Origin: a virus
Length of the DNA stretch: 64,000 bases
Strand: one strand, 5' to 3'
Virus record (IMG/VR): IMGVR_UViG_3300043811_000021
Location: 32,001-96,000 of that record
Made by a program: the position numbers and the translations under genes. Positions 17,585-31,469 of the stretch are shown one piece after another (position 1 is the stretch's first letter; each line of letters begins with the position of its first letter). Under the pieces are notes generated by a model. The model was not told the DNA's origin. It was given only the letters and a program-made list of their open reading frames with translations, and did not search any database.

Positions 17585-17626
17585 AGGGGAATTATATCAT
17601 GGAAGGCGCAGGATAATAGAAGAATA

Positions 17627-17701
17627 TGGAGCGAATGACCGGGCACGATCCGGTGACTTTTGGGTGGAAGCCAAATATGTTACCAACTACACCACATTCG
17701 C
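17627..17701 (-). tRNA. tRNA-Gly(UCC)
   Basis: Cloverleaf GCGAATG/CATTCGC-T-CCA; anticodon arm TTTGG-CTTCCAC-CCAAA; T-loop ATCGTGC. Confidence 0.9.
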
Positions 17702-17706
17702 TAAAC

Positions 17707-17781
17707 TGGTCCCGGTGATCCCTTACGAGGGGACGGCCTCCGTCTTATCAGGACGGCGTTCTTCATCTGAACTACACCGGG
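17707..17781 (-). tRNA. tRNA-Ile(GAU)
   Basis: CCGTC-CTGATAA-GACGG; CCA encoded; atypical T-loop CTCGTAA. Confidence 0.85.
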
Positions 17782-17787
17782 TTAAAA

Positions 17788-17861
17788 TGGAGCCTACGCG
17801 GAGAGTTTAACTCCGGTCTCTATCGTACCAGGATAGGGCACTGTCGCTATGCTACGTAGGC
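17788..17861 (-). tRNA. tRNA-Thr(GGU)
   Basis: GCCTACG/CGTAGGC-T-CCA; CTATC-CTGGTAC-GATAG. Confidence 0.85.
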
Positions 17862-18535
17862 ATTGAACATCCCAGAGTCACAGGTATTTCATCTGTGCGT
17901 TGTAACCTGCTTCCCCTACTTTCAATCTCACTCTGAAACAGAGAACGTTTTGTAATTAACCGCCATCCTCGCCTGTGAACGATAGTTCTTATTTTTTCTA
18001 TCCTCAATCCTAAGTGTTATAGCACTTTTCTTGGGCGGCATCTCTTCCCATGGTATGTAATAGCATTCCTTTGTTTCTGGACAATATACCGCTAATATAT
18101 CAAAATCACCATCAACATATTTCATTCTATGACTACCTTTGGAATTTGCCCAAGTTGATTCTATATCTATTTTCAAAGTACCGTCGCGCACCGAGCAATA
18201 TTTCACCTGAACAGTCCATAATTTATTTGAACGATATACTACAAGATCGAATGGAGCGTGTTCCGTTTGAGGTACACAGATTATGAAGCCTTGTTCGCAA
18301 AGATCAGCCTGAACTTTCAACACCGCTAGGTCACCCTTTTCTTTTGTGTGATGACTCTTCATTTATCTATTATAACACTAAAAGAAGCACTCCGAACTTG
18401 GTTGCTCAGGTTAACGCTTTTCCTGGCTGTTAGGCATTACGACCATTTGCAACTGGTAGCCTAAACACTCTCAACTCGCCTACCTGTATTTTCCTGTGGC
18501 CTACAGGTGTTTCGGTAGGTCTGTATCGAGCTAAC
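17862..18535 (-). ncRNA. unassigned structured RNA (~240 nt in two parts) with an endonuclease ORF in a loop
   Basis: TGCTTCTTTTA before the ORF pairs with TAGGGGAAGCA after it; further stems CCTAC/GTAGG, ACCTGT/ACAGGT, TTAGGC/GCCTAA, CAGG/CCTG, CACAG/CTGTG. Confidence 0.5.
17928..18362 (-). CDS. PD-(D/E)XK endonuclease, group I intron-associated (I-Ssp6803I-like) family
   Basis: TKEKGDLA...PFDLV...VQVKY...Y..GDFDILAVYCP...CYYIP. Confidence 0.85.
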   Translation of the reverse strand: MKSHHTKEKGDLAVLKVQADLCEQGFIICVPQTEHAPFDLVVYRSNKLWTVQVKYCSVRDGTLKIDIESTWANSKGSHRMKYVDGDFDILAVYCPETKECYYIPWEEMPPKKSAITLRIEDRKNKNYRSQARMAVNYKTFSVSE

Positions 18536-18536
18536 T

Positions 18537-18614
18537 TGGTGCGCCGTGAGAGGCTCGAACTCCCGACCTAGTGCTTGTAAGGCACCCGCTCTGAACCAAC
18601 TGAGCTAACAGCGC
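18537..18614 (-). tRNA. tRNA-Val(UAC)
   Basis: GGTGC-CTTACAA-GCACT; canonical D and T arms; CCA. Confidence 0.95.
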
Positions 18615-18619
18615 AAAAA

Positions 18620-18695
18620 TGGACGGTCTATCGGAAGTTGAATCCGAATTTCTACCTTCGGAGGGTAGCGCCCTTATCCGTTGGACCATAGACCG
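18620..18695 (-). tRNA. tRNA-Arg(CCG)
   Basis: CTACC-CTCCGAA-GGTAG; CCA. Confidence 0.9.
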
Positions 18696-18701
18696 AAAAT
18701 A

Positions 18702-18780
18702 TGGTGCCGCTGGCCAGAATCGAACTGGCGTCAATCCGTCTACTCGAAGCCCGCTTAGGAGGCGGGTGAGGTACAGCGGC
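18702..18780 (-). tRNA. D-arm-less tRNA-like gene, anticodon CCU (Arg)
   Basis: Acceptor GCCGCTG/CAGCGGC-A-CCA; only TACCTCA precedes the anticodon arm CCCGC-CTCCTAA-GCGGG; ~20-nt variable region; canonical T arm. Confidence 0.7.
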
Positions 18781-18784
18781 AAGA

Positions 18785-18861
18785 TGGTGCTGACGGCTGG
18801 GATCGAACCAGCGGCATCTTGCTTAGAAGGCAAGCACTCTATCCGTCTGAGTTACGTCAGC
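18785..18861 (-). tRNA. tRNA-Arg(UCU)
   Basis: CTTGC-CTTCTAA-GCAAG; CCA. Confidence 0.95.
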
Positions 18862-18865
18862 AATC

Positions 18866-18951
18866 TGGTGGAGCCGGTGGGACTTGAACCCACATTGGGT
18901 TTCCCCGCTCATTAAAAGTGAGGTCTCTGCATCCAATTCGAGTACGACTCC
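18866..18951 (-). tRNA. tRNA-Lys(UUU) with long variable arm
   Basis: CTCA-CTTTTAA-TGAG; extra arm GGG-GAAA-CCC; CCA. Confidence 0.85.
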
Positions 18952-18959
18952 ATTAAACT

Positions 18960-19036
18960 TGGTGAGCGCGGCTGGATTTGAACCAGCGTCAGCCTGCTTA
19001 AGAGGCAGGTATAATCAGCCGCTATACGACGCGCTC
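18960..19036 (-). tRNA. tRNA-Lys(CUU)
   Basis: CCTGC-CTCTTAA-GCAGG; CCA. Confidence 0.93.
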
Positions 19037-19037
19037 A

Positions 19038-19117
19038 TGGTAGACGTGACGGGTGTCGAACCCGCGTACTCCCGCTTATAAGGCAGGTGCTAAAACCAAT
19101 CCATCAGCTACACGTCT
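19038..19117 (-). tRNA. tRNA-Ile(UAU)
   Basis: CCTGC-CTTATAA-GCGGG; CCA. Confidence 0.88.
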
Positions 19118-19126
19118 GTAAAACTA

Positions 19127-19202
19127 TGGTGCCAGTGGCTCAACTCGAATGAGCTACCTCCGACTTATGAGATCGGCGCATATCCACTTCTGCTTCACTG
19201 GC
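19127..19202 (-). tRNA. tRNA-Met/Ile2(CAU)
   Basis: CCGAT-CTCATAA-GTCGG; CCA. Confidence 0.88.
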
Positions 19203-19207
19203 GAAAC

Positions 19208-19278
19208 TGGCAGGGGATAGGAGAATCGAACTCCTCACGGCGAGTTTTGGAGACTCGCCTAATCCCAGATCATCCCCT
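19208..19278 (-). tRNA. tRNA-Trp(CCA), short D arm; first gene of operon A
   Basis: AGGGGAT/ATCCCCT-G-CCA; CGAGT-CTCCAAA-ACTCG. Confidence 0.9.
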
Positions 19279-19290
19279 GTATATCCTGCG

Positions 19291-19305
19291 AATTTTCAAT
19301 GATCA
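19291..19305 (-). promoter_or_regulatory. boxA-like antitermination element
   Basis: TGATCATTGAAAATT immediately after terminator A; resembles rRNA-operon boxA. Confidence 0.45.
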
Positions 19306-19333
19306 AAAAGAAGCCCTTCCACTGAGGAAGGGC
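19305..19333 (-). terminator. attenuator terminator A
   Basis: GCCCTTCC-TCAGT-GGAAGGGC followed by TTCTTTTT, between leader ORF A and tRNA-Trp. Confidence 0.9.
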
Positions 19334-19359
19334 CGGTGCTACAACACTTGCACAGACCC

Positions 19360-19431
19360 CTAAGACACGATCCCCCATCCCATCCGCTTGATGGTTATGG
19401 TTCTGACGTGTTTGCTAGTGGTCTGCATCAT
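19360..19431 (-). CDS. leader peptide A, MMQTTSKHVRTITIKRMGWGIVS
   Basis: AAAGGA ribosome-binding site; TATAAT at 19467-19472; codons match operon A anticodons. Confidence 0.85.
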   Translation of the reverse strand: MMQTTSKHVRTITIKRMGWGIVS

Positions 19432-19526
19432 TTTTCCTTTGTCGAGGGGTTTCCCGCTCTAGCCCTATTATATCCCAGGCTGGGGTTTAGCTCTGCATAA
19501 TCCATCTACAGAGTACCGCAAGTCGA

Positions 19527-19856
19527 TTAGGAATGCAAGCCCAAAAATCGATAAGTCAACAATAAAGTTGTCAGATGGATCGCCTGATCGAACCCAATCA
19601 GCACAAAGAACCAGTGACGCTTCTCTTTCTTCCACAAATACGAAGTCCCCCTAGAGGTAATGTAATCGGTCGCGAAATGGAAGACAAACGTAATTATAGC
19701 GAACTTCCAGCCGAAAGCCAAGAATGGAAGAGAGTAAACAGAGACGTGAATTCCAAGCCATGTGTTTCTCGTTGACTTATTGAGAGCCATATTATCAGTT
19801 TGCAGAACAAAATCTGAGATGAAGTGAATCCAGATCAACGCTAAGATGTAGAGCAT
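19527..19856 (-). CDS. DUF3307-like membrane protein
   Basis: [14 protein letters not shown]...Y, HFATDY, GFDQAIH. Confidence 0.8.
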
Positions 19857-20603
19857 GATTTCTCCTAGTGGTCACGAAATATACTGCAATCAGAATAATC
19901 CGTCCCCTCTATCTTGCCTTTCTCAAATTGATTTCTTCCGTACTTTCTACAAAAGTGAGCCAGCTCTATCCACTCTTTATCTTCAAGTGAAGTAGAAGGA
20001 AGAGAGATTTTGATATTTTTTAATAATTCCTTAAATTTTTCGTCTTCTTTTTCGAGAAGTTCTCTTTTATGCTGGCCAATCTGGTCGTACATGGTAACAT
20101 TTCCAATCCAATTCTGTGCCTCCTCTGCACTGAATCCAAAAGATTCAACACAAGTTCTTTCTGCCTCTCTTTTCCATTCGTACATAATAATCCTCAATCG
20201 TTTATCGTCTTCCGTTTTTCCAGTCTTTTAACCAATGAATCAACAACAGACTCTAGGCTGTGTCGATCTCCAAAGTGACCTACTCCATCTACTACATCAG
20301 AACATATCTCTATTACCTCTTGTAGTCGCAGGCTTTCCAAATCTTTTCCTAATCGATCCCCTTTCATTATTATCTCTAGTCTTTCAAGAACGGAAGTTAA
20401 AACTTCCTGTCCTTTTATTACGGCTGTTAGAAAGTCATCTGCGAACACCATGTTCTCAATAAGAATAGTTCCATCGGAAAACCATTCTGCATTGTTCTTA
20501 ATCTTTATTCTGTAGCATCTCATCGTTGTCTCCTATGCATATTATAGCAAAAAAATAGGGGAGAACAATATTCCGCTCTCCCCGCTCACAAAATGGTTAA
20601 AGG

Positions 20604-20906
20604 TTAAACCGCCAGTGCTTCCAAAGCAGCCAGTTCCTTTTCCAGTTCGCTCTTCTTCTGGGCAGGAGTCTTGAGAGAGTCAATCCGTGCTGTCAGTTCA
20701 CGCTTACGTGCAGCGATCTTGTCAGAGTTACGAGATGTGATCTCCCGGCGAATTGCTTTCAGTTGCGAATCAATGAACTCAGGCTCTTCGATCTGTAATG
20801 CCTCGTATTCGGCACGGAGAGACTTTCCGAAGGCCAGTCCAGCAACCAACTCGTCAATGTCAGTTACGCGGTCAGTGTTGAATGTCTTGAATGTTTGAAG
20901 ATTCAT
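20604..20906 (-). CDS. small coiled-coil protein coupled to the TROVE/vWA gene
   Basis: ATGA overlap with 20903..22411. Confidence 0.65.
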   Translation of the reverse strand: MNLQTFKTFNTDRVTDIDELVAGLAFGKSLRAEYEALQIEEPEFIDSQLKAIRREITSRNSDKIAARKRELTARIDSLKTPAQKKSELEKELAALEALAV

Positions 20907-22411
20907 GCTGTTACCAGTTTACCTTTCTGTGCCCCCTTGAGCACTGAGTTGAGAGTTAAAAGCGGAGTGGCCAGGATTTCATCCACAAGTCCGTAGGTTT
21001 TCGTTCTCATAGTCTGCGCCAAATTTGGGATTGAGTAGTAATCCGTTCCGCCCCTTATGTCAAATGTCTGCATTTCCAGTCCAGCACTCTGCATCTTCGT
21101 TGTGAGGCTGTTAGGCTCACCTTCAACGTGGTACAGATATACTGGAACGTCACGGTCAGCGAACGCCACATATTTCTTGTAAACGTCCGTAAAGTACGGT
21201 GCGCTATGTTCCGCGCCGTCAGAAACAATTGCAATTCCATCAACCGAAATCTTCTCCTGAAGCATCCTGTTCAAACCGCAGCCGATGGATGTTCCACCGT
21301 TGGCTGTGATGTGCCTTGTTGCCTTTTGGATTGAGTCCAGAGGCAATCCTGTTACATCAATAGTCATCGGGTTAGTGTCAAAGAATACAAGGTAGACCTT
21401 TCCTCTGCAAATCTTAGCCAACGTAGCAGCAACGTGACGGGATGCCTCAATGGAACGAGACATACTACCCGACTTGTCTGCCAAAACGAGCCAATCGCCT
21501 TCTGGTCCTCCCATTGCCGCAATCTGCTTATCTTGTAGTCCCTGCAACTTCTCTTTCAGAACAGAGTCAGTCACAGACTCAGCAGCTTTGGTCGTCTTCA
21601 GCGTATTCTTCTTAGACGTTGCAGCCTTTGCTAATGCCTGATCAAATGCCCCGCGAAGTGCAGGATTCGTCTTCAGTCCCAACTTCTCCAACATCTTCAC
21701 GTTGGTAGTCAACTCAGTCGCAGACATTGCTCCAATCAACGCCAGAACCAAATCAGGTTCCTTCGCCTTTGCTCCCAATGCTCCCATCGCGATAAGGAAA
21801 GGAATCCGGTAACGCATGATCGATCCTGCCGCTTCCGTAGGAGTCATGTTCTTGAGGTTTGCTACTACCTCAAATACCGATCCCTTGGGAAGTGGTAATT
21901 TATTACCCTTTTCATCCTTACCGAAAAGAACCGCACGAACACGGTCTGCCTTTGTCTCAGGGCGAACATGGCCAAGAGCATACAACTCCCTCAGCGTCTT
22001 CCTATGCTGAATTGCCAGATGATCCCAGCCCTTATCCTGCTCCTTCTCATGCAGGTAATCGCCAATCAACCGGCGCAAAGGAAGCATCTTACCTGCTGGA
22101 CGAATCTCACGCGCAAAATGGAAAGCGCGAAGCAACTCACGCGGTCCAAGCAATGCTAAATGAGCATACGCATTATCCAATAACTCCGAGTCATTCTCAT
22201 ATGCCAAGCCGATAACTGGAAGAGCAACCTTGCTGTCCCTTATCTGCCCATGAGTTCTATCCCAGGAAATCAAATGCGCAAAGAATTCGCCTTCCTGTTT
22301 TACTGCCTGTTGTCCGATAGGAACGTATTCCTTCAGCGCACCGTGAGGACTTTTTGAAAGTTCACTCACAATTCTTTGTTTTGTCAATCCCTGTTCTGCC
22401 ATAGTATTCAT
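20903..22411 (-). CDS. TROVE-like + vWA (Ro60/Rsr-related) RNA-binding protein
   Basis: 502 aa; helical N-terminal region (FFAHL..W......RD..VALP), MIDAS motif LADKSGSM, GGTSIG, IVSDG; size and layout match Ro60. The TROVE call is inferred. Confidence 0.65.
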   Translation of the reverse strand: MNTMAEQGLTKQRIVSELSKSPHGALKEYVPIGQQAVKQEGEFFAHLISWDRTHGQIRDSKVALPVIGLAYENDSELLDNAYAHLALLGPRELLRAFHFAREIRPAGKMLPLRRLIGDYLHEKEQDKGWDHLAIQHRKTLRELYALGHVRPETKADRVRAVLFGKDEKGNKLPLPKGSVFEVVANLKNMTPTEAAGSIMRYRIPFLIAMGALGAKAKEPDLVLALIGAMSATELTTNVKMLEKLGLKTNPALRGAFDQALAKAATSKKNTLKTTKAAESVTDSVLKEKLQGLQDKQIAAMGGPEGDWLVLADKSGSMSRSIEASRHVAATLAKICRGKVYLVFFDTNPMTIDVTGLPLDSIQKATRHITANGGTSIGCGLNRMLQEKISVDGIAIVSDGAEHSAPYFTDVYKKYVAFADRDVPVYLYHVEGEPNSLTTKMQSAGLEMQTFDIRGGTDYYSIPNLAQTMRTKTYGLVDEILATPLLTLNSVLKGAQKGKLVTA

Positions 22412-22426
22412 CCTCCCGGAGATGTG

Positions 22427-22978
22427 TTATGGAAGTTTACGTTTTGCAAGGTAGTCAACAAAGAAGTTATAATCTAACTTCCGCTCCTTACACCAGTCAT
22501 GCGGGTCCATCGAACCTTTCCTCTTATTGCAATTTTTACAGGCAGAAAGGAAATTTGATGTGTCATTCGCCCCACCCGTTTCAAGTGGCTGGAAGTGATC
22601 GATTGACAGTGGAGATACACCCATTTTCACGCCGCAGTACATGCATTTGCATCCGTCAGCGACCCATACTTTCTGCTGCACCGCTCCAGAAATTTCATAG
22701 CGTACCTTGCGATGAAACGCTTTCGCTGGCATCACTAAAATCTCAGGATTATCTGTACGAGCTAAAAAGTCCGTCCACTCTTCGAGAGAAAGACGTTCAG
22801 TAGAGCATTCGCTAATATCTGGGCAATCTGGCAGCATGAGGATAGCCATTGCACCTTCTCCCCCCACTACCAACCCCTCAATTTTAAGGATATTACCCAA
22901 GTCGCCATAAACCGCTGGACGGTGGCGAAGCTCAAGCATATAAAAACGATCTCCGCTAGCCATATTATCCTCTCCCAA
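22427..22978 (-). CDS. HNH endonuclease domain protein
   Basis: CMYCG...SIDHFQP...GG.....NFLSACKNCNKRKG. Confidence 0.85.
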   Translation of the reverse strand: MGEDNMASGDRFYMLELRHRPAVYGDLGNILKIEGLVVGGEGAMAILMLPDCPDISECSTERLSLEEWTDFLARTDNPEILVMPAKAFHRKVRYEISGAVQQKVWVADGCKCMYCGVKMGVSPLSIDHFQPLETGGANDTSNFLSACKNCNKRKGSMDPHDWCKERKLDYNFFVDYLAKRKLP

Positions 22979-22992
22979 GGCACAAAAAATAC

Positions 22993-23158
22993 TGGCTTCG
23001 TGTCGAGTGTGGTTTTGATGTTTTCAAGCAGCCTTGCGGCCCTCGAAACCCCCGCCTCATCATCCCTGCCTCTCGGCAGAATCCCTGACTCAGACGATCA
23101 GGCGGGGGGTTGCAGGTTGCCCTGCAAAACTATCATGTATCCACTCTCAGTGAAGCCA
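22993..23158 (-). ncRNA. Y-RNA-like ncRNA, copy 1
   Basis: TGGCTTC-ACT-GAGAGTGG-ATACATG...CCACACTC-GACAC-GAAGCCA with internal hairpins. Confidence 0.7.
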
Positions 23159-23178
23159 ATCTTGTACTACTTAACTTA

Positions 23179-23295
23179 TGGAGCCGGGTCCAAGAATTGA
23201 ACTTGGATTGTCGATTTATGGAATCGATGCATGTATCCAGAGTTAGTAAGGTTGCCCTTGTGTCAACTTTGGCATTACCGTTTTGCTAACCCGGC
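23179..23295 (-). tRNA. tRNA-like gene (anticodon CAU) carrying a 43-nt motif insertion
   Basis: Removing 23229..23271 (bounded by an ATGC direct repeat) leaves a 74-nt cloverleaf: GCCGGGT/ACCCGGC-T-CCA, TCGAT-TCCATAA-ATCGA. Confidence 0.75.
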
Positions 23296-23308
23296 TCAAC
23301 TTGTACGG

Positions 23309-23773
23309 TCAACTATTCCTACCGCGAATCTTACGGCAATCAATACAGTAGTCCCTTAATCCGGTTTCCTTATTGCCGTCCTTGTGAAATCTTCCTTTTG
23401 GTATCCAATCCTGATGACGACTACACCAAGCCATTCCGTCAGGAGCTATTCCTATAGTTCGTATGGAATTGTACGTTGCCTTACCTAAATGACCGGCGGC
23501 AATGTTGCATCTTTTATGGGAAAATGCTATGTTCTCCAAATCCCAAAAGAGGTCGGCGCTTATTCCTTCCCAAGGTTTCTTGTGTTCTATAGAACACTCA
23601 GAAGATTTTTCAATCTTCTTCTTACAGCGATAACAAGTATCTGCTCCGCATCTTTTTACAAGATCAAACAAGATAAGTCTATAAAGTCTGCCATTCGCAG
23701 TACCAAAAGGCATATTTAGCGTCTCATCTTTTTTCCATGTAGAACTCTTCTTTTTTATTTCCATCATCTCCAT
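23309..23773 (-). CDS. HNH-type homing endonuclease
   Basis: CYRC...SIEHKKPW...LENIAFSHKRCN; C-terminal zinc module. The track's 5' extension overlaps ncRNA, so the start was moved. Confidence 0.75.
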   Translation of the reverse strand: MEMMEIKKKSSTWKKDETLNMPFGTANGRLYRLILFDLVKRCGADTCYRCKKKIEKSSECSIEHKKPWEGISADLFWDLENIAFSHKRCNIAAGHLGKATYNSIRTIGIAPDGMAWCSRHQDWIPKGRFHKDGNKETGLRDYCIDCRKIRGRNS

Positions 23774-23819
23774 ATAATACATGGAGGGAATAAATTTCAA
23801 CCCAATGCTGCTCTTTATC

Positions 23820-23862
23820 CATGTACCCAGGCAAAGTAACGTTTCCGTTGTGTCTTGTCCGG
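23820..23862 (-). ncRNA. Y-RNA-like motif, circularly permuted copy
   Basis: CCGGACAA-GACAC-AACG-GAAA-CGTT-ACT-TTGCCTGG-GTACATG. Confidence 0.65.
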
Positions 23863-23890
23863 TTCCGTTTTTTGCCCCCCACAACTTATT

Positions 23891-24014
23891 TGGTTAGTGT
23901 CTGTCAGCGAGTGTTGCTGGTTGAAAAAGTAGGGATCGAACCTACGACCTATTCATTTGAAGTGAATTGCTCTACCAGTGAGCTATTTTTCCGTGTACGC
24001 TGCCATGTTAACCA
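23891..24014 (-). ncRNA. Y-RNA-like ncRNA enclosing a complete tRNA fold
   Basis: TGGTTA-ACA-TGGCAGCG-TACACG...CGCTGACA-GACAC-TAACCA. Confidence 0.7.
23918..23992 (-). tRNA. tRNA-like domain with anticodon UCA (opal-reading)
   Basis: Canonical D arm GCTC/GAGC; ATTCA-CTTCAAA-TGAAT; T arm GTAGG-TTCGATC-CCTAC; ACCA end; G1-A72 mismatch; no Sec-type long arm. Confidence 0.75.
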
Positions 24015-24022
24015 AATCTTAA

Positions 24023-24084
24023 AGGGTTGGTATCGGACTGCGCTGTTCATGTTTACAAAGCATGTAAGCAGTCCCGTCAACCCT
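24023..24084 (-). ncRNA. Y-RNA-like ncRNA, minimal copy
   Basis: AGGGTTG-ACG-GGACTGC-TTACATG...GCAGTCC-GATAC-CAACCCT. Confidence 0.7.
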
Positions 24085-24091
24085 ATCTTAA

Positions 24092-24207
24092 TCCGCTTGT
24101 GTCTTTTGGCTAACCCTTGCGGGCACAAGGCCGTTTTCGAGGCGGCTTCTTTTTCTCCAAATGAAAATGCTGGACTACCAGCACATGTACGCCAAAACGT
24201 AAGCGGA
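24092..24207 (-). ncRNA. Y-RNA-like ncRNA copy
   Basis: TCCGCTT-ACG-TTTTGGC-GTACATG...GCCAAAA-GACAC-AAGCGGA. Confidence 0.7.
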
Positions 24208-24245
24208 ATCTTTCATCCCTAACATCAGGAAAACTCAAACTCAGT

Positions 24246-24362
24246 GATTAGGTAGCCTCACATCAGGTCGCTCACTTCCAGAATCCGGCACAGTTACAAA
24301 CGGGACGACACCCTCACCTAGCTACCATCTTTCCATGCCCTCATTGGTAAAGCTACCTAATC
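24246..24362 (-). ncRNA. unassigned structured RNA
   Basis: 11-bp closing stem GATTAGGTAGC/GCTACCTAATC; inner TACCA/TGGTA. Confidence 0.45.
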
Positions 24363-24455
24363 TCTGCATCAACAAAACCAACTCTACTACAATGTCCTGC
24401 GCATTGCAAGCACTTTCTAAAACTATTTTCTACTATTTTTATGCTTGCTAAATTA

Positions 24456-24534: not shown

Positions 24535-24546
24535 ACTTACAAAAAA

Positions 24547-24621: not shown

Positions 24622-25156
24622 ATAAACTTGGTTACTTCTCGTCCAATAAAACATAGTACTGATCAGGACCATGCTCTGCTGCTGAATTCAGAACATCCAC
24701 CAATTCATCCGCAGTAATGGCATAGTATTTTCTATTTCCATTCACCGGAAAAAACGGGAATAGCGCAGCCATTCGTCTTTCTGATTCAAGATACAGCTTT
24801 TCTGTTTGTACGAAAACCTGTGACATATTACCTCCGATAACACTCACAAATCTCTAACAACAAACTTCCACGGATCGCTCATTACCCAGCCAACAGCTTT
24901 TCCGTTCTCTAACTCATACCAACGATCAACTGGAGATTCAGGTCCAGGCCACGGCTTAGGCCAAGTAGGTCCATCCTCGCCAAAATTAGTATGCGTCCTT
25001 AGCACAGGAATTTTAAGTAAAGAATCTACTTCGTCATTCCTGCCCATTCCATTTTCCGTGTACCCGCATGGCAGAGCGTCAGATAAACTATCAGACCCAT
25101 CATATCCAAAAATCTTTATGAGTAGTTCTTCTTCCTCTGTCATTGCTTCTCCGATA

Positions 25157-25234
25157 TGGTGGACTCGGCCAGATTTGAACTGGCAACACGATGATTTTCA
25201 GTCACCTGCTCTACGCGATTGGAGCTACGAGTCC
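25157..25234 (-). tRNA. tRNA-Phe(GAA)
   Basis: GGTGA-CTGAAAA-TCATC; CCA. Confidence 0.93.
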
Positions 25235-25861
25235 GATTAACGATCTCCAGTCGTTTCTTTCTTTAGATGTCTTCCGACGATGACAATTTGCACATCGCAC
25301 AACACATTTTTCAATCTCTTCCAAAATCCTTTTCATCGAGCATGTTGAGCGTAGGAGCTTAGATATATTGCACTTTTTAACCCCTTTAATATGGTCAAAA
25401 TCCAAGACCATAATGTCCGATTCTCCGCAATCCACACAATGATGTTCCGCCAGATAAGAAACGATGAAAGCCCTTTGTTCCTGTCGTTTAATATCCCTGT
25501 TACGATAAAGGCGCTTCCGTTCTCTTTCCGAGTTATCCCTATAGTGCTGTGCCTTATAAGAACTTTCGCAAATCATGCACCATGCTTGTAGCCCATCTCT
25601 CCGTGCAGCATTTTCTCTAAAATCGCAGCGTGTTTTAACCGTGGTGCATTTGCTGCAATATTTCTCCTTTTCAGGATCGAACTTTGGAAGAAGACTTCTA
25701 CCGTCTTCCGCGATGCACTTCTTGGAGCAAAACCTACGTTTAGCATATTGAGTTTTCCAAAACTCTTTGCCACACCAAGCACATGAATAAGCAAATAGAC
25801 GCCTATTCTTGCCATGAAAAAATTCGATCCTACAATCAACCATGCAATAAGTGTAATACAA
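25211..25861 (-). CDS. HNH homing endonuclease whose 3' end runs into tRNA-Phe
   Basis: CVDCGESD...LDFDH....K...I....EIEKCVVRCANCHRRKT; upstream CxxC modules. Confidence 0.85.
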   Translation of the reverse strand: MYYTYCMVDCRIEFFHGKNRRLFAYSCAWCGKEFWKTQYAKRRFCSKKCIAEDGRSLLPKFDPEKEKYCSKCTTVKTRCDFRENAARRDGLQAWCMICESSYKAQHYRDNSERERKRLYRNRDIKRQEQRAFIVSYLAEHHCVDCGESDIMVLDFDHIKGVKKCNISKLLRSTCSMKRILEEIEKCVVRCANCHRRKTSKERNDWRSLIGLVAPIA

Positions 25862-25884
25862 ATGACTGAAAACATCAAAACTTT

Positions 25885-25960
25885 TGGTGGACCGGGAGGG
25901 GCTTGAGTCCTCGCGCAGACGCTTGCAGGGCGTCCCATCTCCATCTGAAAGTACCGGCCC
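25885..25960 (-). tRNA. tRNA-Ala(UGC)
   Basis: G3-U70 pair; GACGC-CCTGCAA-GCGTC (C33); CCA. Confidence 0.88.
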
Positions 25961-26005
25961 ATTTATTCAACTTCAAACTGTGCCGGGGAATTTCACCCCG
26001 GCGAT

Positions 26006-26093
26006 TGGGGAGATCGGCGGAACTCGAATCCGCGTTGAGGAATTACCCTCCCGGAGCCACAATCCGGTGCCTATCCATCTCGGCCACGACCTC
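26006..26093 (-). tRNA. tRNA-His(GUG) with long variable arm
   Basis: CCGGA-TTGTGGC-TCCGG; C73; extra arm GAGG-GTAATT-CCTC; position -1 is T rather than G. Confidence 0.85.
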
Positions 26094-26096
26094 ACT

Positions 26097-26170
26097 TGGA
26101 GCACTCAGTAGGAATCAAACCCACGTTTTGGCCATACAAAGGGCACGTTCTGTCACTGAACTATGAGTGC
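26097..26170 (-). tRNA. tRNA-Thr(UGU)
   Basis: GCACTCA/TGAGTGC-T-CCA; loop TTTGTAT. Confidence 0.82.
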
Positions 26171-26174
26171 AAAC

Positions 26175-26720
26175 TTACACAAACTGCAAACTCTTCTCAC
26201 CTTCGGAATCAGAGTACAAATACTTACTCCACGCTTCGACTTCCAATCCCATCGAACGAAGGATAATCCTTCCTGTGTGAACCGTGGCTGGGAGAGGCTT
26301 GCGAAGTAGTTTCATTCCAGCCTCTTCCGGCGTACGATCTGCCTTGCGGTGGTTATCTTTGCGGCAGCAAGTTACAAGGTTACTCCAGTCGTTCTTTCCT
26401 CCACGCGACTTAGGAATTACGTGGTCAAGTGTCAAAGAATCACCCTTGAATTCCTCTCCACAATAGCAGCACTTATGCCCATCGCGCAAGTAAATATTTT
26501 TCCTACTCACAACCTGCATCCGAACGGGAATATGTCTATACGTTCTCAACTTGATTACCGATGGTAAAGTTATGCCAGGATAAACTTCAATATCCGTTGG
26601 CATCTCTACCATAGCAGCACCCTTACAAAGTAACGTCAAAGCTCTACGGGCAGCAACTATTCTGATCGGCTCATACGATGCGTTTAATACCAACACCGGC
26701 TTTTTCATCAGGTTGCTCAT
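26175..26720 (-). CDS. HNH endonuclease of the type common in tRNA arrays
   Basis: VLVLNASYEP...LPSVIKL...RDGHKCCYCG...TLDHVIPKSRGG...W.NLVTCC. Confidence 0.92.
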   Translation of the reverse strand: MSNLMKKPVLVLNASYEPIRIVAARRALTLLCKGAAMVEMPTDIEVYPGITLPSVIKLRTYRHIPVRMQVVSRKNIYLRDGHKCCYCGEEFKGDSLTLDHVIPKSRGGKNDWSNLVTCCRKDNHRKADRTPEEAGMKLLRKPLPATVHTGRIILRSMGLEVEAWSKYLYSDSEGEKSLQFV

Positions 26721-26764
26721 ATTCCCTCAATCAATCTCCGCTAGTCTCTCTGAATAATCTTCTG

Positions 26765-26840
26765 TGGAGCCGGTGGAGGCAATCGAAGCCCCGACCTCAT
26801 CTGTACGAAAGATGCGCTCTTCCACCTGAGCTACACCGGC
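26765..26840 (-). tRNA. tRNA-Thr(CGU)
   Basis: CATCT-TTCGTAC-AGATG; CCA. Confidence 0.92.
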
Positions 26841-26935
26841 TTGTCTACGTCTTGCCACTACTATACTATGCACTTTCGTGAAGTCGTGGCTCACTAACAT
26901 CATTCTGTGGGTCATCGGCTTTCCTTTCTTTCAAT

Positions 26936-27010
26936 TGGAGCGGAGTACGGGGTATGATCCCGTGCGCAAAGTGTGGCACACTTCGATGCTTCCAATTACA
27001 TCAACTCCGC
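26936..27010 (-). tRNA. tRNA-Gly(GCC)
   Basis: GCGGAGT/ACTCCGC-T-CCA; loop GTGCCAC; T-loop ATCATAC. Confidence 0.88.
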
Positions 27011-27018
27011 AAATCTTT

Positions 27019-27093
27019 TGGTTCCAGCGCGAGGTTACGATCCCCGATCCTCGCCTTCAAAGGGCGGTATCCTACCAGTTAGATGACGCTGGA
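27019..27093 (-). tRNA. tRNA-Gln(UUG)
   Basis: U1-A72; CGCC-CTTTGAA-GGCG; T-loop ATCGTAA. Confidence 0.88.
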
Positions 27094-27102
27094 TCAAAAC
27101 CT

Positions 27103-27177
27103 TGGTTGCCCATCGAGGCGACGATCCCCGAACTACTGGTCCAGAGCCAGCCGTGATACCAATTTCACCAATGGGCA
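27103..27177 (-). tRNA. tRNA-Gln(CUG)
   Basis: U1-A72; GCTGG-CTCTGGA-CCAGT; T-loop ATCGTCG. Confidence 0.88.
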
Positions 27178-27190
27178 ACAACTAAACAGT

Positions 27191-27284
27191 GAGGGCGCGA
27201 CTCTTTCGCTCCGAACGTCTTACTCAAACCCCAAAGGGGTCACTGCGTTACTCGACAGGACTTACTAGACGGCCTGTGTCCCTC
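27191..27284 (-). ncRNA. unassigned ~95-nt structured RNA between tRNA-Asn and tRNA-Gln
   Basis: GAGGG/CCCTC closing stem; ACAGG/CCTGT; ACCC/GGGT hairpin; possible CGTCT/AGACG pseudoknot. Confidence 0.45.
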
Positions 27285-27293
27285 TCCAAACTT

Positions 27294-27384
27294 TGGCTCA
27301 CGGAGCAGGACTCGAACCTGCGATGGGAGATGAACTCCTCTGTATTAACAGTACAGCGCCTGCTACCAACTCGGCTATCCGTGA
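27294..27384 (-). tRNA. tRNA-Asn(GUU) with long variable arm; first gene of operon B
   Basis: U1-A72, G73; CTGTA-CTGTTAA-TACAG; extra arm GGAG-TTCAT-CTCC. Confidence 0.9.
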
Positions 27385-27401
27385 ACATCCCTAAACAGTT
27401 C

Positions 27402-27429
27402 GAGACCCAAACCTTTCGATCTGGGCCTC
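27402..27429 (-). terminator. attenuator hairpin B (weak U tract)
   Basis: GAGGCCCAGATC-GAAA-GGTTTGGGTCTC followed by GAACTGTTT. Confidence 0.6.
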
Positions 27430-27476
27430 TGCGTTTTACCATTTTTAGTTAGGTAAAAATCTCTCTGAGACCCCGA

Positions 27477-27542
27477 TTATGACCCCCCACCCTGCGGCGT
27501 TTGTGTCGCGGTTGGATTGGCGTTATGGAATCGTGTCTGCAT
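27477..27542 (-). CDS. leader peptide B, MQTRFHNANPTATQTPQGGGS (leaderless)
   Basis: ATG 6 nt after the -10 box; codons match operon B anticodons. Confidence 0.85.
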   Translation of the reverse strand: MQTRFHNANPTATQTPQGGGS

Positions 27543-27548
27543 GAATTC

Positions 27549-27577
27549 AATGTACCTCAGTCCTAAAAACTTGTCAA
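27549..27577 (-). promoter_or_regulatory. promoter of tRNA operon B
   Basis: TTGACA-17 nt-TACATT. Confidence 0.85.
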
Positions 27578-28025
27578 GAACTTTTTTAAGGTAATCCCGC
27601 CAACTGCGTTTCTTGCCTCTGGGCCGGTGGCCAGTTGTCTATTTTTCGCATTAGAGTCCGTATCGCTGCTTCCCGCTTCACGTCCACAATTCCTCTCCCC
27701 TGATCTTTCAGAGAATCAATCAATAAAGAAACCAGCTTTGCCTTTGCCTCAGCTAACGGATACTCTCGTTTAGAAACGTGAATCACTACTTCATGCTTTT
27801 GTGTGTCCTGCGCGAAACAGGTAATCGAGAAAAGAAGAATTGCGATAAGGAATGGTTTCATGCGTCATCATGGCATAGTTCATATAAAGACAATATAAGA
27901 AAAGAGAAGGGACATGCTCTTCAGCTTGCCCCTTCGAGCCTCAGCCTACGCAGCTGAGGGAATACGATTTTGGTTAAATCAATTGTAACGCAGTTCCGCA
28001 ATCTGTGCAGAATTTATTTGCAGCC

Positions 28026-28481
28026 TTATTCACTTTTCCGCAAGTCACACACTCCGGTTTCCTGTCCACCGTTCCCGCCGCCCAGCTTGCTCCAATTGCA
28101 ATCCTTGAGGGCTAGGCGAATACGATGCAGCATGAACCATGCCGTCTTCTGTGTGACCTCAATCGCCCGCATGATCTCGTAGGAACTAACGCCGTTCTTG
28201 CAATTCACTACCAGCCAAACGGCGGTCAGCCATTTATCGAGCGGCACAGGAGAATCCTCGAACACACTCTGAGTCTTCACACTGAATTGCTTGTGGCACT
28301 CTTTCGCCATGCACTTCCATATCCGGCGAGAGGACAGATAGGAAACTCTCTTGCTCTCACAGTGCGGGCAGGTGACACCGTTAGGCCAGCGCATCGACGC
28401 AACGAAATCGACACACACGTTCGGGTCTTGGAAATACCGCGTTGCGGCAAGTAAGCTCTTGGGTAGTCTTTCTTTACTCAT
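28026..28481 (-). pseudogene. IS1595-family transposase, truncated before the DDE domain
   Basis: RWPNGVTCPHC...WKC...C.KQFSVKT.SVFEDS.VPLDKWL...KNGVSSYE...VTQKTAWFMLHRIR; ends before the expected ExDET motif. Confidence 0.88.
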
Positions 28482-29350
28482 TCTTCACCTCACAGAATCA
28501 AAGAAAACGTTGCGGCTGTCTCCGTAGAGGTGTATTATTTCTACAGAGAGAAGCCCTTATGACTCCCCGCGCAACCATGCGCAGGGAGCCTGAAAGGCCA
28601 TAGACTCCGGTGTTAGAGCACCATTGCCTGTGGGTACTACCGTGTGAAAGTACATTTTGCTTCTCCTCGGTCCTTAAATTAGCTTGCTAGGCTGTGGACC
28701 GAATCCGTTGTACCGAAGCCCCGGCCTTAAGCTGGGGTTTCGTTTTTATCCTCCCTTTTATTGGCAATGTAGCGATGCGGATCACGGCCCCGGCCTTGGT
28801 GCGTCCGCGTGATCCGTCCAGCCTGCATGAGAGCGATGAGCGACCACCCTACTGCGTTCATAGCGGCATCAGGTTTTTCTGGGAGACGAACCAGTGCACC
28901 GAGTTGAATTGCCGAAAGGACACTCCGCGAGGTCCACTCGGTTTCCGGCGAAGAATTCACCAATTGCAGAACGACAGACTCCATTTCACTCAGTTCGCCC
29001 CGGACAGTTTTTGCTTGGACAGTGACTAGATTTCCATCTTTGCCAACAAAGACAAAATCGTATCCGGGATAACGCTGCTTGAGGCGTGTCAGATCATCGC
29101 TATCCCTGCGGATTTCCCGCTCAGCGGCTTCGATTGGATTTATGGGAGCTGCGTTCATTCCTTAATCGTAAACATGGATTCATGGAATGTCAAGCCTTAC
29201 GGTGGAAAGTTTTCATGGAAATCATGGATTATCCTGCGCTTTCCTACGCAACGGCATAGTCCTAAATCACGCCGCTACGAGGGTTGTATCCGCTCGGCTG
29301 TAAACCGAAGTCAACAGATTTTATTTGTATGGTGCGTCAACGATATTTAT
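28026..29350. mobile_element. IS1595-like remnant with passenger ORF 28727..29158
   Basis: Truncated transposase, higher GC, and abrupt truncation of the neighbouring HNH gene near 29347; boundaries approximate. Confidence 0.55.
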
Positions 29351-30009
29351 GCCGATTTAACCTCTTTCAGATGAGCAACCTCTATGTATCGCGAATATCT
29401 ACATACCGCACAGAATTTCGGTCGTCCGCTTTTATCATATATCGTTTCAGCATCTCTACGAATAGATGAACGCGCTGACTGCCAATTAGACCGCCTCGCG
29501 AATAGTTCATCCTTCGTTAATTGTCCGATACTGATTGGTCGCTTCACTCTCTCTGCGCACGATGGGCAGTATTTATGAGATTTATAATCTTCCGTCCTGT
29601 AAAATACGTCCCCACATATTTTGCAGTGGCATCCAGTTCTTAGTTTTTTGCCGACAAATACAGAAGAGCACTTTCGGTCACAGAAGTTTCTTTTATTTAT
29701 CTGAGAGATTTTCTCCCTCGGCTTGAGAATTAGAATCCTTCCACACTCCTTGCATATTTTTGGGTTAGAGTAATAGAGATCAATTGCTTCTTGTCTAGCT
29801 AAAATATTTCCATTTGGTATGTAGTTTGGGTGCTCTTTTTTATATCTCTCTTTATCTCTTTCAGTCAGATATTCCCTGTGATCTTCTCGATACTTCTTCT
29901 GGTATGCGCGGCGGCATTCCATGCATCTTTCTGTCGATATTGGGATTTCATGAAGGCGCTTTTGGCAAAACTTCGTTAATCCTGAAAACATTTCTTGACC
30001 ATGCTTCAT
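29347..30009 (-). pseudogene. HNH homing endonuclease truncated inside the nuclease motif
   Basis: Several CxxC modules; ends CAVCRY...EVAHLKEVKSA* without the N/CxxH half of the motif. Confidence 0.7.
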
Positions 30010-30145
30010 ATTCTCTCCTCAGATTGGCGTGGCAGTAGCCTACGCTGATTAAATTCAGTGTTTTCATACCTATTCCTCTTTTTTTTGGTTTTCCTGCTGC
30101 TTAACGTGTTGCAGGAGCCACGGAATAATTTAGTGTAGCACGGAA

Positions 30146-30490
30146 CTACGGAAACCGAGCAATACCAGGAACTTGATCGAATCCAGTCACTCCTTCTCGC
30201 TTCAAAAGCCTCCAACCTCCATCACCTATCCGCATCACTTCTCCACTGTCTATTTCCTCAATCGGATTCGTAACCTTTCTCCAATTCTCGCAAGTGCATT
30301 TGAATTGCATTGAAACAGGAAGAGGACATGGCTCTCCTAGATGCGATTCTTCATTATCACCACAACATCTACGCATATTACATGGAGGGATACATCCACC
30401 AACTAAAACAGCGCCCTGTTTGACAAGACGCTGCGCTTCGGCTCCAGAACGGGCCATTCCAGTTTCCGTTAGTGCCTTAGATAATTTCAT
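30146..30490 (-). CDS. stand-alone S4 RNA-binding domain protein (TyrRS C-terminal-like) with Cys-rich insert
   Basis: L.KALTETGMARSGAEAQRLVKQGAVLVGG...KVTNP......GEVMRIG. Confidence 0.8.
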   Translation of the reverse strand: MKLSKALTETGMARSGAEAQRLVKQGAVLVGGCIPPCNMRRCCGDNEESHLGEPCPLPVSMQFKCTCENWRKVTNPIEEIDSGEVMRIGDGGWRLLKREGVTGFDQVPGIARFP

Positions 30491-30507
30491 TTCCTCTCCC
30501 TAAAGTA

Positions 30508-30594
30508 TGGTGCAGGCGGTGTGAATCGAACACACTATGCCCCGGAGGACGCTTGATTTACAGTCAAGGAGGCTACCATTAGCCCAACGCCTGC
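30508..30594 (-). tRNA. tRNA-Tyr(GUA)
   Basis: CTTGA-CTGTAAA-TCAAG; long arm; CCA. Confidence 0.93.
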
Positions 30595-30600
30595 ACATCA

Positions 30601-30687
30601 TGGAGGAGAGGACGCGAGTCGAACGCGCAGTACCTTTCAGTACGTCTGATTTCAAATCAGGTCGGCTTGCCCATGCCGAACCTCTCC
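30601..30687 (-). tRNA. tRNA-Ser(UGA)
   Basis: CTGA-TTTGAAA-TCAG; long arm; CCA. Confidence 0.92.
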
Positions 30688-30692
30688 AAATT

Positions 30693-30780
30693 TGGCGGTA
30701 GCAGGATGAGTTGAACATCCAATAGCTTTCACTATGTCTCGCTTCGAACGAGGTGGGCTTGCCACATGCCCAATGCTACC
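30693..30780 (-). tRNA. tRNA-Ser(CGA)
   Basis: CTCG-TTCGAAG-CGAG; long arm; G73-CCA. Confidence 0.92.
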
Positions 30781-30784
30781 AAAA

Positions 30785-30870
30785 TGGCGGAAAGTTAGGT
30801 ACTCGAAACCTACACCTCGCGGTGCTCACCGATTTCCAATCGGGTCCCATCCCTGACGGGTTAACTTTCC
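30785..30870 (-). tRNA. tRNA-Ser(GGA)
   Basis: CCGA-TTGGAAA-TCGG; long arm; G73-CCA. Confidence 0.92.
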
Positions 30871-30874
30871 AAAC

Positions 30875-30960
30875 TGGCGGAGCGTACTGAAGTCGAATCA
30901 GTTCAGGCTTTCACCTGTACGGTTTAGCAAACCGCTGCATTTCCGTCCTGCCCACGCTCC
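30875..30960 (-). tRNA. tRNA-Ser(GCU)
   Basis: GCGGT-TTGCTAA-ACCGT; long arm; G73-CCA. Confidence 0.93.
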
Positions 30961-30961
30961 G

Positions 30962-31039
30962 TGGTCCTCGCACCCGGACTCGAACCGGGAATATGACACG
31001 CTTTTTGAGAGCGCCGCTCTTCCATTTCGCCATGCGAGG
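30962..31039 (-). tRNA. tRNA-Leu(CAA), reduced variable arm
   Basis: GCGCT-CTCAAAA-AGCGT; A73-CCA. Confidence 0.88.
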
Positions 31040-31052
31040 TACTTCTAAACTA

Positions 31053-31135
31053 TGGTGCCCGCAGAGGGACTCGAACCCCCACCCCGAAAGACCTGTTCCT
31101 AAGACAGGCGCGGCTGCCAATTACGCCATGCGGGC
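31053..31135 (-). tRNA. tRNA-Leu(UAG)
   Basis: CCTGT-CTTAGGA-ACAGG; CCA. Confidence 0.95.
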
Positions 31136-31147
31136 ACATCTTAAACT

Positions 31148-31222
31148 TGGAGTACCGGGAGAGAGTCGAACTCTCCAAAACTTGCTTTGCAGGCAAGACC
31201 TTAGCCGATTAGGTTCCGGTAC
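31148..31222 (-). tRNA. tRNA-Cys(GCA)
   Basis: CTTGC-CTGCAAA-GCAAG; U73-CCA. Confidence 0.9.
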
Positions 31223-31223
31223 A

Positions 31224-31306
31224 TGGTGCGGGATAAGGGACTCGAACCCTTACGATTTCTCCACGGATTTTAAGTCCGTTATGGCTCCCAGTTTCATCAA
31301 TCCCGC
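31224..31306 (-). tRNA. tRNA-Leu(UAA); first gene of operon C
   Basis: ACGGA-CTTAAAA-TCCGT; CCA. Confidence 0.95.
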
Positions 31307-31337
31307 AAAACTAAAAAGCCCCCATTTCTGGAGGCTT
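31307..31337 (-). terminator. attenuator terminator C
   Basis: AAGCCTCCA-GAAA-TGGGGGCTT followed by TTTAGTTTT, directly before tRNA-Leu. Confidence 0.88.
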
Positions 31338-31362
31338 CTGGTAAAAATCCTGAACTTGGACT

Positions 31363-31434
31363 CTATCCCATAGCCTCTCTCGCACTCAGACTGAGTGAAT
31401 ACGATGATAAAGATAGGGAGCACAAGTTGTTCAT
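31363..31434 (-). CDS. leader peptide C, MNNLCSLSLSSYSLSLSAREAMG
   Basis: Codons 4-17 are only Leu/Ser/Cys/Tyr, matching operon C; ATG 6 nt after the -10 box (GAGGA could also act as a ribosome-binding site). Confidence 0.88.
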   Translation of the reverse strand: MNNLCSLSLSSYSLSLSAREAMG

Positions 31435-31440
31435 GTATTG

Positions 31441-31469
31441 ATCCTCTCATAGATTCAGGATGTTGTCAA
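31441..31469 (-). promoter_or_regulatory. promoter of tRNA operon C
   Basis: TTGACA-17 nt-GAGGAT with a TG extension. Confidence 0.65.

Follow-up and report, generated by a model that had tools for sequence, protein, structure and literature searches.

We analyzed the transfer RNA (tRNA) genes of an uncultured phage together with the sequences that precede them. The window, i.e. the whole stretch of 64,000 nucleotides (nt) analyzed here, comprises bases 32001-96000 of a 134,145-bp phage record (IMGVR_UViG_3300043811_000021) rated 100% complete, and all tRNA genes of the phage lie on its minus strand, at 17.6-31.3 kb of the window. Three tRNA operons (A, B and C) are each headed by a unit made up of a promoter, an open reading frame (ORF) of 21-23 codons and a hairpin, followed by the first tRNA. 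We consider it likely that each unit is a ribosome-mediated (leader-peptide) transcription attenuator of its tRNA operon that gauges the speed of decoding; a given tRNA set would probably be made by the phage only while ribosomes are slow in reading the codons of that set. An attenuator had been proposed in a first-pass annotation of the same DNA, and in silico support for it came from the codon match, the conservation, the hairpins, a mutually exclusive antiterminator and the start signals.

Codon match and conservation of the leaders

The leader ORFs and the operons that they precede are as follows, with the genes of each operon in order of transcription.

19360-19431, minus strand: leader ORF A, 23 codons, MMQTTSKHVRTITIKRMGWGIVS, stop codon TAG
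27477-27542, minus strand: leader ORF B, 21 codons, MQTRFHNANPTATQTPQGGGS, stop codon TAA
31363-31434, minus strand: leader ORF C, 23 codons, MNNLCSLSLSSYSLSLSAREAMG
17627-19280, minus strand: tRNA operon A; first part Trp cca, Met cat, Ile tat, Lys ctt and Lys uuu (ARAGORN 'tta'); middle Arg tct, Arg cct, Arg ccg and Val tac, then a PD-(D/E)XK endonuclease gene (17928-18362); end, after this gene, Thr ggt, Ile gat and Gly tcc
24456-27384, minus strand: tRNA operon B; first part Asn gtt, Gln ctg, Gln ttg, Gly gcc and Thr cgt, then an HNH gene (26175-26720); rest Thr tgt, His gtg, Ala tgc, an ORF (25211-25861), Phe gaa, two small ORFs, Pro tgg and Arg acg
30508-31306, minus strand: tRNA operon C; Leu taa, Cys gca, Leu tag, Leu caa, Ser gct, Ser gga, Ser cga, Ser tga and Tyr gta (ARAGORN)

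The codon match was scored by standard wobble rules. In leader A, 17 of the 23 codons are decoded by the tRNAs of its own operon (14 of 23 by exact Watson-Crick pairing), and these codons cover 10 of the 11 tRNAs, or 11 of 12 when Lys UUU is included. Operon B decodes 15 of the 21 codons of its leader with 11/11 tRNAs covered, and operon C decodes 13 of 23 with 9/9 covered; codons 4-17 of leader C are 14 consecutive Leu, Cys, Ser and Tyr codons, and operon C encodes Leu, Cys, Leu, Leu, four Ser and Tyr. By contrast, when a leader was scored against the other operons, only 1-4 codons were decoded and at most four tRNAs covered in every off-diagonal combination. The first-pass annotation had every tRNA represented in its own leader, which holds for B and C and fails for A, since Arg(cct) has no AGG codon in leader A; its lists of the amino acids absent from each leader were correct for all three.

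As a genome-wide null, we took all stop-free intervals as long as each leader from the six reading frames of the genome (134,145 bp) and counted those reaching both observed values (codons decoded and tRNAs covered). For A these were 2 of 111,583 intervals, both at leader A, which is the sole locus in the genome with that score. The corresponding counts were 7 of 118,966 for B (four at leader B and three at one other locus) and 18 of 111,583 for C (five at leader C and 13 at three other loci), and at the leaders only in-frame registers scored. Each leader lies on the correct strand no more than ~150 nt before its own operon, and no other matching locus is directly upstream of that operon. Because the matching loci are so few and each leader stands directly upstream of its own operon on the correct strand, a chance match is not tenable.

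The peptide was then kept constant and synonymous codons were redrawn from the codon usage of the phage. The fraction of draws that jointly reached the decoded, covered and exact-match counts was 0.0014 for A, 0.057 for B and 0.126 for C. Codon-level (isoacceptor) tuning is therefore demonstrated for leader A, which carries the exact anticodon complements ATA, AGA, CGG, AAG, GGA and TGG, and the earlier statement that the leaders sample isoacceptors is borne out for A alone, since in B and C such tuning is not separable from a match by amino acid; the test is weak for the latter two because operons B and C hold nearly all isoacceptors of their amino acids. These results bear on the alternative that the units sense amino-acid starvation via uncharged tRNA and tune tRNA output to the nutrient state. 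Stalling depends on charged tRNA, so lack of any sampled amino acid would give read-through, and in B and C the match may equally be one at the amino-acid level. However, extra tRNA does not relieve amino-acid starvation, which makes for poor regulatory logic; leader A prefers exact complements of rare-type anticodons (ATA, AGA, CGG, AAG, GGA) beyond synonymous resampling; and the leaders sample 9-11 tRNAs about once each, with no repeats of one amino acid. We regard starvation sensing as improbable.

The GenBank phage collection, searched at both DNA and protein level, contained no close or cultured relative, and returned tRNA-level matches and one distant record, LR756511.1. Relatives were gathered via a gene for a 502-amino-acid (aa) protein located between operons A and B, which gave 9 viral and 37 metagenomic loci with 61-88% identity (individual loci are given below by L numbers). 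The operon order is the same across the related loci, and the tRNA sets differ slightly. The first-pass annotation had pointed to the regions before the tRNA arrays of related phages as the place to look for a short ORF and a terminator, and a leader ORF with a hairpin before the first tRNA was indeed kept in 28 of 29 regions. Of the distinct regions upstream of operon A, 16 of 17 have it, and so do all eight B regions (an inserted ORF displaces two of them) and all four C regions. The leader of each relative was among very few stretches of its locus that match the tRNA set of that same phage.

The leader peptides themselves are only 26-91% identical (mean ~50%), and their residues occur in shuffled order, most clearly in C, where the peptides of relatives begin MNNLCSLSLSSYSLSLS..., MRFLLSSSRYCLSSLL..., MKNFGLSSLCSSSYLLSLS... 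and MKNLCSNSLLSSLSYLLC... At the variable alignment columns, the distinct codons falling inside the decodable set of the operon were 59 of 96 for A (61%, vs 26% expected from set size), 52 of 78 for B (67% vs 33%) and 39 of 62 for C (63% vs 26%). Because the codons of variable columns stay within the set of the operon while the peptides diverge, selection acts on codon class and not on the peptide. Such selection with free peptide sequence is a clean signature by which further sensors of this kind could be found. For covariation with single anticodons, the tRNA sets of the relatives are too alike to discriminate: in L003, Leu gag and cag replace tag, and the leader keeps CTA, CTC and CTG.

The same data address the possibility that the leaders are chance ORFs, or encode small functional peptides, in front of ordinary terminators of upstream genes. 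Short ORFs are abundant, with 296 of at least 20 aa overlapping the 16.5-kb region examined, and L016 has a terminator alone before its operon. Against this stand the genome-wide and per-relative nulls, the operon specificity, and a composition that is conserved while the sequence is not, and we strongly disfavor this explanation as highly improbable.

Start signals, terminators and alternative pairing

The following start signals precede the leader ORFs.

19510-19538, minus strand: candidate promoter of unit A, TTGCAT-17-TACTCT, read from the sequence
19435-19439, minus strand: Shine-Dalgarno (SD) sequence of leader A, AAGGA, 3 and 6 nt upstream of the first and the second ATG, respectively
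27549-27577, minus strand: promoter of unit B, TTGACA-17-TACATT, with 6 nt from the -10 element to ATG
31441-31469, minus strand: promoter of unit C, TTGACA-17-GAGGAT, with 6 nt from the -10 element to ATG

With the 6-nt gap in B and C, transcription would start at the A of the ATG, and the messenger RNA of unit B is probably leaderless, as predicted from the promoter geometry. The geometry of a leaderless start fits B, C and, overall, 18 of 26 leaders, in which a promoter of the type TTGnnn-16..18-TAnnnT ends 6-10 nt before the start codon without an SD, the starts being predicted from sequence only. The TTGCAT-17-TAnnnT pattern of the candidate promoter of unit A recurs 6-8 nt before the leader start in L018, L020 and L023; the C-unit promoter of L013 and L027 reads TTGACA-17-GATGAT-6-ATG. 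Of 197 long ORFs in the genome of the phage, three show the leaderless promoter pattern, as do 0.35% of random positions. In place of such a promoter, seven A-type leaders, that of the window included, carry AAGGA 5-8 nt upstream. In unit A of the window, ~70 nt including the SD separate the candidate promoter from the ORF, and a second -10-like TATAAT is present at 19467-19472. Because two interchangeable start modes, a leaderless promoter or an SD, serve the same ORF, translation appears to be what is selected. In relatives, a fourth operon (Met, Asp, Glu), not present in the phage of the window, has a promoter that abuts its first tRNA, with neither ORF nor terminator (L009 1180-1231, L013 3420-3465, L003 2650-2699), which argues that the leader is not a generic by-product of these promoters.

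Between the ORFs and the first tRNAs lie the hairpins and the segments that can pair with them; energies are those of the hairpins.

19304-19334, minus strand: intrinsic terminator of unit A, stem 19334..19312 followed by TCTTTTT, -16.7 kcal/mol
19350-19360, minus strand: segment 2 of unit A, GGGGTCTGTGC, which begins with the G of the stop codon
19330-19339, minus strand: segment 3 of unit A, GCACCGGCCC, which overlaps the 5' arm of the terminator
27402-27429, minus strand: hairpin of unit B at the terminator position, GAGGCCCAGATC..GGTTTGGGTCTC, -20.7 kcal/mol, with no U-run here
27467-27473, minus strand: segment 2 of unit B, GGGTCTC, 3 nt after the stop codon
31307-31339, minus strand: intrinsic terminator of unit C, stem 31339..31314 followed by TAGTTTT, -15.1 kcal/mol
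31372-31377, minus strand: segment 2 of unit C, GAGGCT, codons 20-21 of the ORF

Terminators of canonical form were seen in all 16 A leaders and all four C leaders examined. The B hairpin is strong and conserved with compensating stem changes, and T-rich tails follow it only in L006 and L007. The division of each unit into promoter, 21-23-codon ORF, hairpin and first tRNA was thus as annotated in the first pass; the hairpin qualifies as a terminator before the first tRNA in A and C, and in B it is a strong hairpin that lacks the U-run.

Alternative pairing was analyzed by folding the RNA up to the terminator loop, without the 3' arm, in a thermodynamic calculation only. In unit A, segment 2 pairs with 19330-19339 (-15.5 kcal/mol), and 7 of 9 nt of the 5' arm are sequestered. 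In unit B, GGGTCTC pairs with GAGGCCC of the hairpin 5' arm (-18.4 kcal/mol, z -2.27), the GGGTCTC motif being kept in the B leaders of L003, L005, L007 and L013, and in unit C GAGGCT pairs with AGCCTC (31331-31336) in the terminator 5' arm (-20.4 to -25.9 kcal/mol, z ~-3). The pairing of a leader-end segment with the 5' arm, described in the first pass for all three units, was recovered throughout the 26 modelled leaders, where a segment at the end of the ORF or just after the stop codon sequesters the 5' arm of the terminator. Segment 2 lies at or just after the stop in most A leaders (GGGGTCTG...) and in B (GGGTCTC), and within the last codons of the ORF in the C leaders and in A of L003, L007 and L032; in the latter group, the arm is sequestered when the fold takes in the last 24-36 nt of the ORF. 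The energies of the truncated folds range from -13 to -30 kcal/mol and are often equal to or stronger than the terminator.

Duplexes of a segment 2 with its own terminator arm had a mean energy of -15.56 kcal/mol vs -13.02 kcal/mol for swapped partners, and 0 of 5000 permutations reached the observed mean. Compensating pairing changes, read from the printed sequences, are seen in L015 (GGGGTCTG:CAGACCTC), L023 (GGGGTTGA:TCAGCCCC) and L006 (GAGGGTC:GACTCTC). Swap-controlled duplexes were used in place of column-wise pair counting, which was discarded after a MAFFT alignment of 12 A-type post-stop regions proved out of register (TAA-GGTCTGG vs TAG-GGGTCTG). In leader A, a conserved CAGACC at codons 3-4 pairs with segment 2 in the full-length fold and so constitutes segment 1; its complementarity to segment 2 gives leader A the classical 1:2, 2:3, 3:4 layout. 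According to this model, a ribosome that has reached the stop codon would mask segment 2 in each of the units.

Full-length folds with ribosome masks were also tried as a switching test and were replaced by the folds without the 3' arm, as the terminator formed under all masks. Downstream of the A terminator, between it and tRNA-Trp (~19283-19300, minus strand), a TTGA(A/C/G)A element is conserved in 15 of 16 leaders. In some leaders a GATAAT-like hexamer comes 8-9 nt after it, a spacing that is wrong for a sigma-70 promoter. The element may be a signal for processing, or else a promoter specific to the phage by which the attenuator is circumvented.

tRNA genes and their surroundings

ARAGORN at default settings returned 26 tRNAs, all on the minus strand, and relaxed settings added Met(cat) at 19127-19202, Trp(cca) at 19209-19280 and Gly(gcc) at 26936-27010. 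The Rfam tRNA model added 24550-24621, whose loop corresponds to Pro(tgg), and three genes were recognized by eye, Arg(cct) at ~18696-18784, Ile(gat) at ~17702-17787 and Ala(tgc) at ~25905-25975, each with an anticodon stem-loop homologous to that of the tRNA that ARAGORN calls at the corresponding operon position of relatives. The total is 31 tRNAs, or 32 when the gene called 'Stop(tta)' at 18866-18951 is counted as Lys(UUU), with 12 in A, 11 in B and 9 in C. The three minus-strand operons with 31 canonical tRNAs described in the first pass were thereby borne out. Relaxed ARAGORN found no tRNA-Asp and no tRNA-Glu in the phage; no leader has an Asp codon, and the first pass had likewise noted the joint absence of tRNA-Asp and Asp codons.

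The 'Stop(tta)' gene at 18866-18951 (minus strand) has the loop CTTTTAA, identical to that of its L003 homologue called Lys(ttt), along with a compensating stem change, and by this resemblance is probably a Lys(UUU) tRNA. ARAGORN makes another suppressor call, 'Pyl(cta)', in L006 and L010 (L006 14039-14114; loop CCTCTAA). Both calls depend on the reading register; in relatives the corresponding positions hold Lys(ttt) and Arg(tct), and the two genes probably encode ordinary Lys and Arg tRNAs whose arms are unusual. A further, well-formed tRNA at 23922-23992 (minus strand), scoring 65 bits against the Rfam tRNA model, stands alone ~460 nt downstream of operon B. Its loop, CTTCAAA, has the anticodon UCA and would read UGA; ARAGORN also finds this tRNA in L003, L018 and L022, and the long ORFs of the window are open under the standard code.

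Operons A and B are interrupted by protein-coding genes, all on the minus strand and at positions that differ between relatives: the PD-(D/E)XK gene (17928-18362), the HNH gene (26175-26720) and a 216-aa ORF (25211-25861). By sequence, the first two are homing-endonuclease-like; TGTTATAAT ends 6 nt before the ATG of the PD-(D/E)XK gene. The ~110 nt between tRNA-Asn and tRNA-Gln of operon B (27180-27293, minus strand) have no match to the tRNA model and no ORF of note. Operon C ends with tRNA-Tyr, and 18 nt further on begins a gene (30146-30490, minus strand) for a 114-aa protein with an S4 RNA-binding domain, which may be co-transcribed with the operon; the similarity of this protein to the C-terminal domain of tyrosyl-tRNA synthetase is weak and below threshold. 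The 502-aa protein between operons A and B (20903-22411, minus strand) adjoins tRNA operons in 46 of 46 related loci. Its sole Pfam match is a sub-threshold one to VWA_CoxE, and its homologue in the huge phage LR756511.1 (30% identity) again lies beside tRNA arrays.

Proposed mechanism and comparison with known systems

From the observed codon match, conservation, terminators, pairings and start signals, we infer that the ORFs are translated, that their translation is coupled to transcription and in which direction the units respond. Transcription would be started by the host sigma-70-type RNA polymerase, the B and C transcripts beginning at or next to the start codon and A relying on its SD. 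A ribosome would then translate the 21-23-codon ORF, made up largely of codons read by the tRNAs encoded just downstream. If decoding is quick, the ribosome would reach the stop codon and cover segment 2, the 3:4 hairpin would form, and transcription would end before the first tRNA. If any one of the sampled charged tRNAs is scarce, the ribosome would lag, segments 2 and 3 would pair, and the polymerase would read into the tRNA genes. The products would be the very tRNAs being gauged, placing each operon under negative feedback from its own tRNA pool. Because this output would relieve the stall, negative-feedback control is the simplest function. We lean towards a reading in which the leader peptide is a bar code of the anticodons of its operon, with which the phage holds its tRNA pool at a set point and replaces species that the host lacks or destroys.

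Several observations weigh against this mechanism. Minimum-energy folds of the full-length leaders keep the terminator under every ribosome mask, so switching must be kinetic, i.e. co-transcriptional. Shuffle z-scores of the single antiterminator folds are modest for several leaders (-1.05 for A of the window), and several cognate codons fall in the last four codons of leader A, where a stalled ribosome still masks segment 2. The synonymous-codon match is significant for A and not for B or C, whose signal lies at the amino-acid level. No leader is recognizable before the terminator that precedes Trp in L016, the attenuator model gives no account of the conserved TTGA(A/C)A element downstream of the A terminator, and homing-endonuclease genes sit inside operons A and B, so the blocks may not each be a single transcript. 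Among the sequencing runs listed as containing this DNA, there was no RNA run. The hairpin of unit B lacks a U-run in the window and in three of five relatives examined (L003, L005 and L027).

This last feature, together with the full-length folds that always keep the terminator, would suit codon-matched, translated ORFs acting by a route other than termination and antitermination, such as Rho-dependent polarity, processing or stability of the precursor RNA, or pause and release of the polymerase. The canonical terminators in A (16/16) and C (4/4) and the antiterminator pairing conserved with compensating changes speak against such a route, to which we give little credence.

A special case of the attenuator reading is inducible counter-defence, in which the operons would be off in a healthy cell and switched on, to supply replacement tRNAs, only after an anticodon nuclease or another tRNA-depleting system of the host cuts a cognate host tRNA. 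Phage tRNAs can offset tRNA-targeting host defences, and with the anatomy of the units, losing a single tRNA species among those that a leader samples would be enough for a response. Induction after tRNA cleavage is compatible with this anatomy, and the link to defence is pure inference. However, the same design gives plain negative feedback where the host tRNA pool misfits the codon usage of the phage, isoacceptor-level matching is significant for A only, and the window shows no link between the units and defence genes. We hold counter-defence to be a tentative and rather unlikely account, and retain feedback attenuation as the preferred one.

Bacterial and phage tRNA genes have been described as controlled by promoter strength, by growth rate and by repressors. 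In the full-text literature searched, with ~1.7 million PubMed Central (PMC) articles and supplementary files outside the search, no leader-peptide or attenuator control of tRNA genes was found. Nor did a codon-matched leader appear among the annotated small ORFs or in the P14a-to-tRNA-Tyr spacer of the tRNA region of phage T5 (NC_005859, 26000-52000), and no short ORF stood out upstream of a tRNA cluster in 41 kb of LR756511.1 around the homologue of the 502-aa protein, where 32 tRNAs are found. The design is therefore not universal among tRNA-rich phages. If the proposed mechanism is true, it would be the first instance of tRNA genes under the control of ribosome-mediated attenuation, and a natural sensor that gives the decoding rate of about ten different codons in one read-out. 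It would explain how a phage carries at least 30 tRNA genes without over-production, and would provide a built-in response to tRNA shortage, possibly including shortage caused by tRNA-cutting host defences. The units, ~150 nt each, would also be compact natural parts that convert the decoding speed of chosen codons to transcriptional output.

The closest counterparts are the enterobacterial leader-peptide attenuators trpL, hisL, leuL and pheL and the multivalent thrL and ilvL. In common with these, the units described here have a short leader with product-linked codons, an intrinsic terminator, mutually exclusive 1:2, 2:3 and 3:4 pairings, and a stop-codon ribosome that would mask segment 2. 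They differ in that tRNAs and not biosynthetic enzymes are regulated, in that most leaders are predicted to be leaderless, and in that 9-12 tRNA species are sampled about once each, whereas the enterobacterial leaders repeat codons for 1-3 amino acids. A permissive Rfam scan of 16900-32000 gave no match to the His, Trp, Thr or Leu leaders or to the T-box, and returned tRNA-clan and weak chance matches only; the units appear to act like the Rfam leader families without being homologous members of them. The control of aminoacyl-tRNA synthetases by the pheST attenuator and by T-box riboswitches is similar in that parts of the translation apparatus are regulated by the state of tRNA. The pheST attenuator senses one amino acid, and T-boxes bind uncharged tRNA directly, with one specifier codon and no ribosome; unlike in the T-box, the in-frame ORF with start signals found here points to a ribosomal read-out.

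An accessory tRNA array under regulation is known from Anabaena, whose trn operon is silent under normal conditions and is switched on by impaired translation (PMC8421152). There, control is exerted via direct repeats overlapping the promoter and a repressor, unlike in the leader units described here, and the words 'leader', 'attenuat' and 'terminator' each occur 0 times in that article. In the mycobacterial leaderless polycysteine short-ORF attenuators, according to the preprint (bioRxiv 10.1101/834739), codon content makes ribosome pausing the sensor for control of the operon. The units described here resemble them in having sensory short ORFs that are, by prediction, leaderless, and differ from that account in that the output consists of non-coding tRNA genes behind a terminator.

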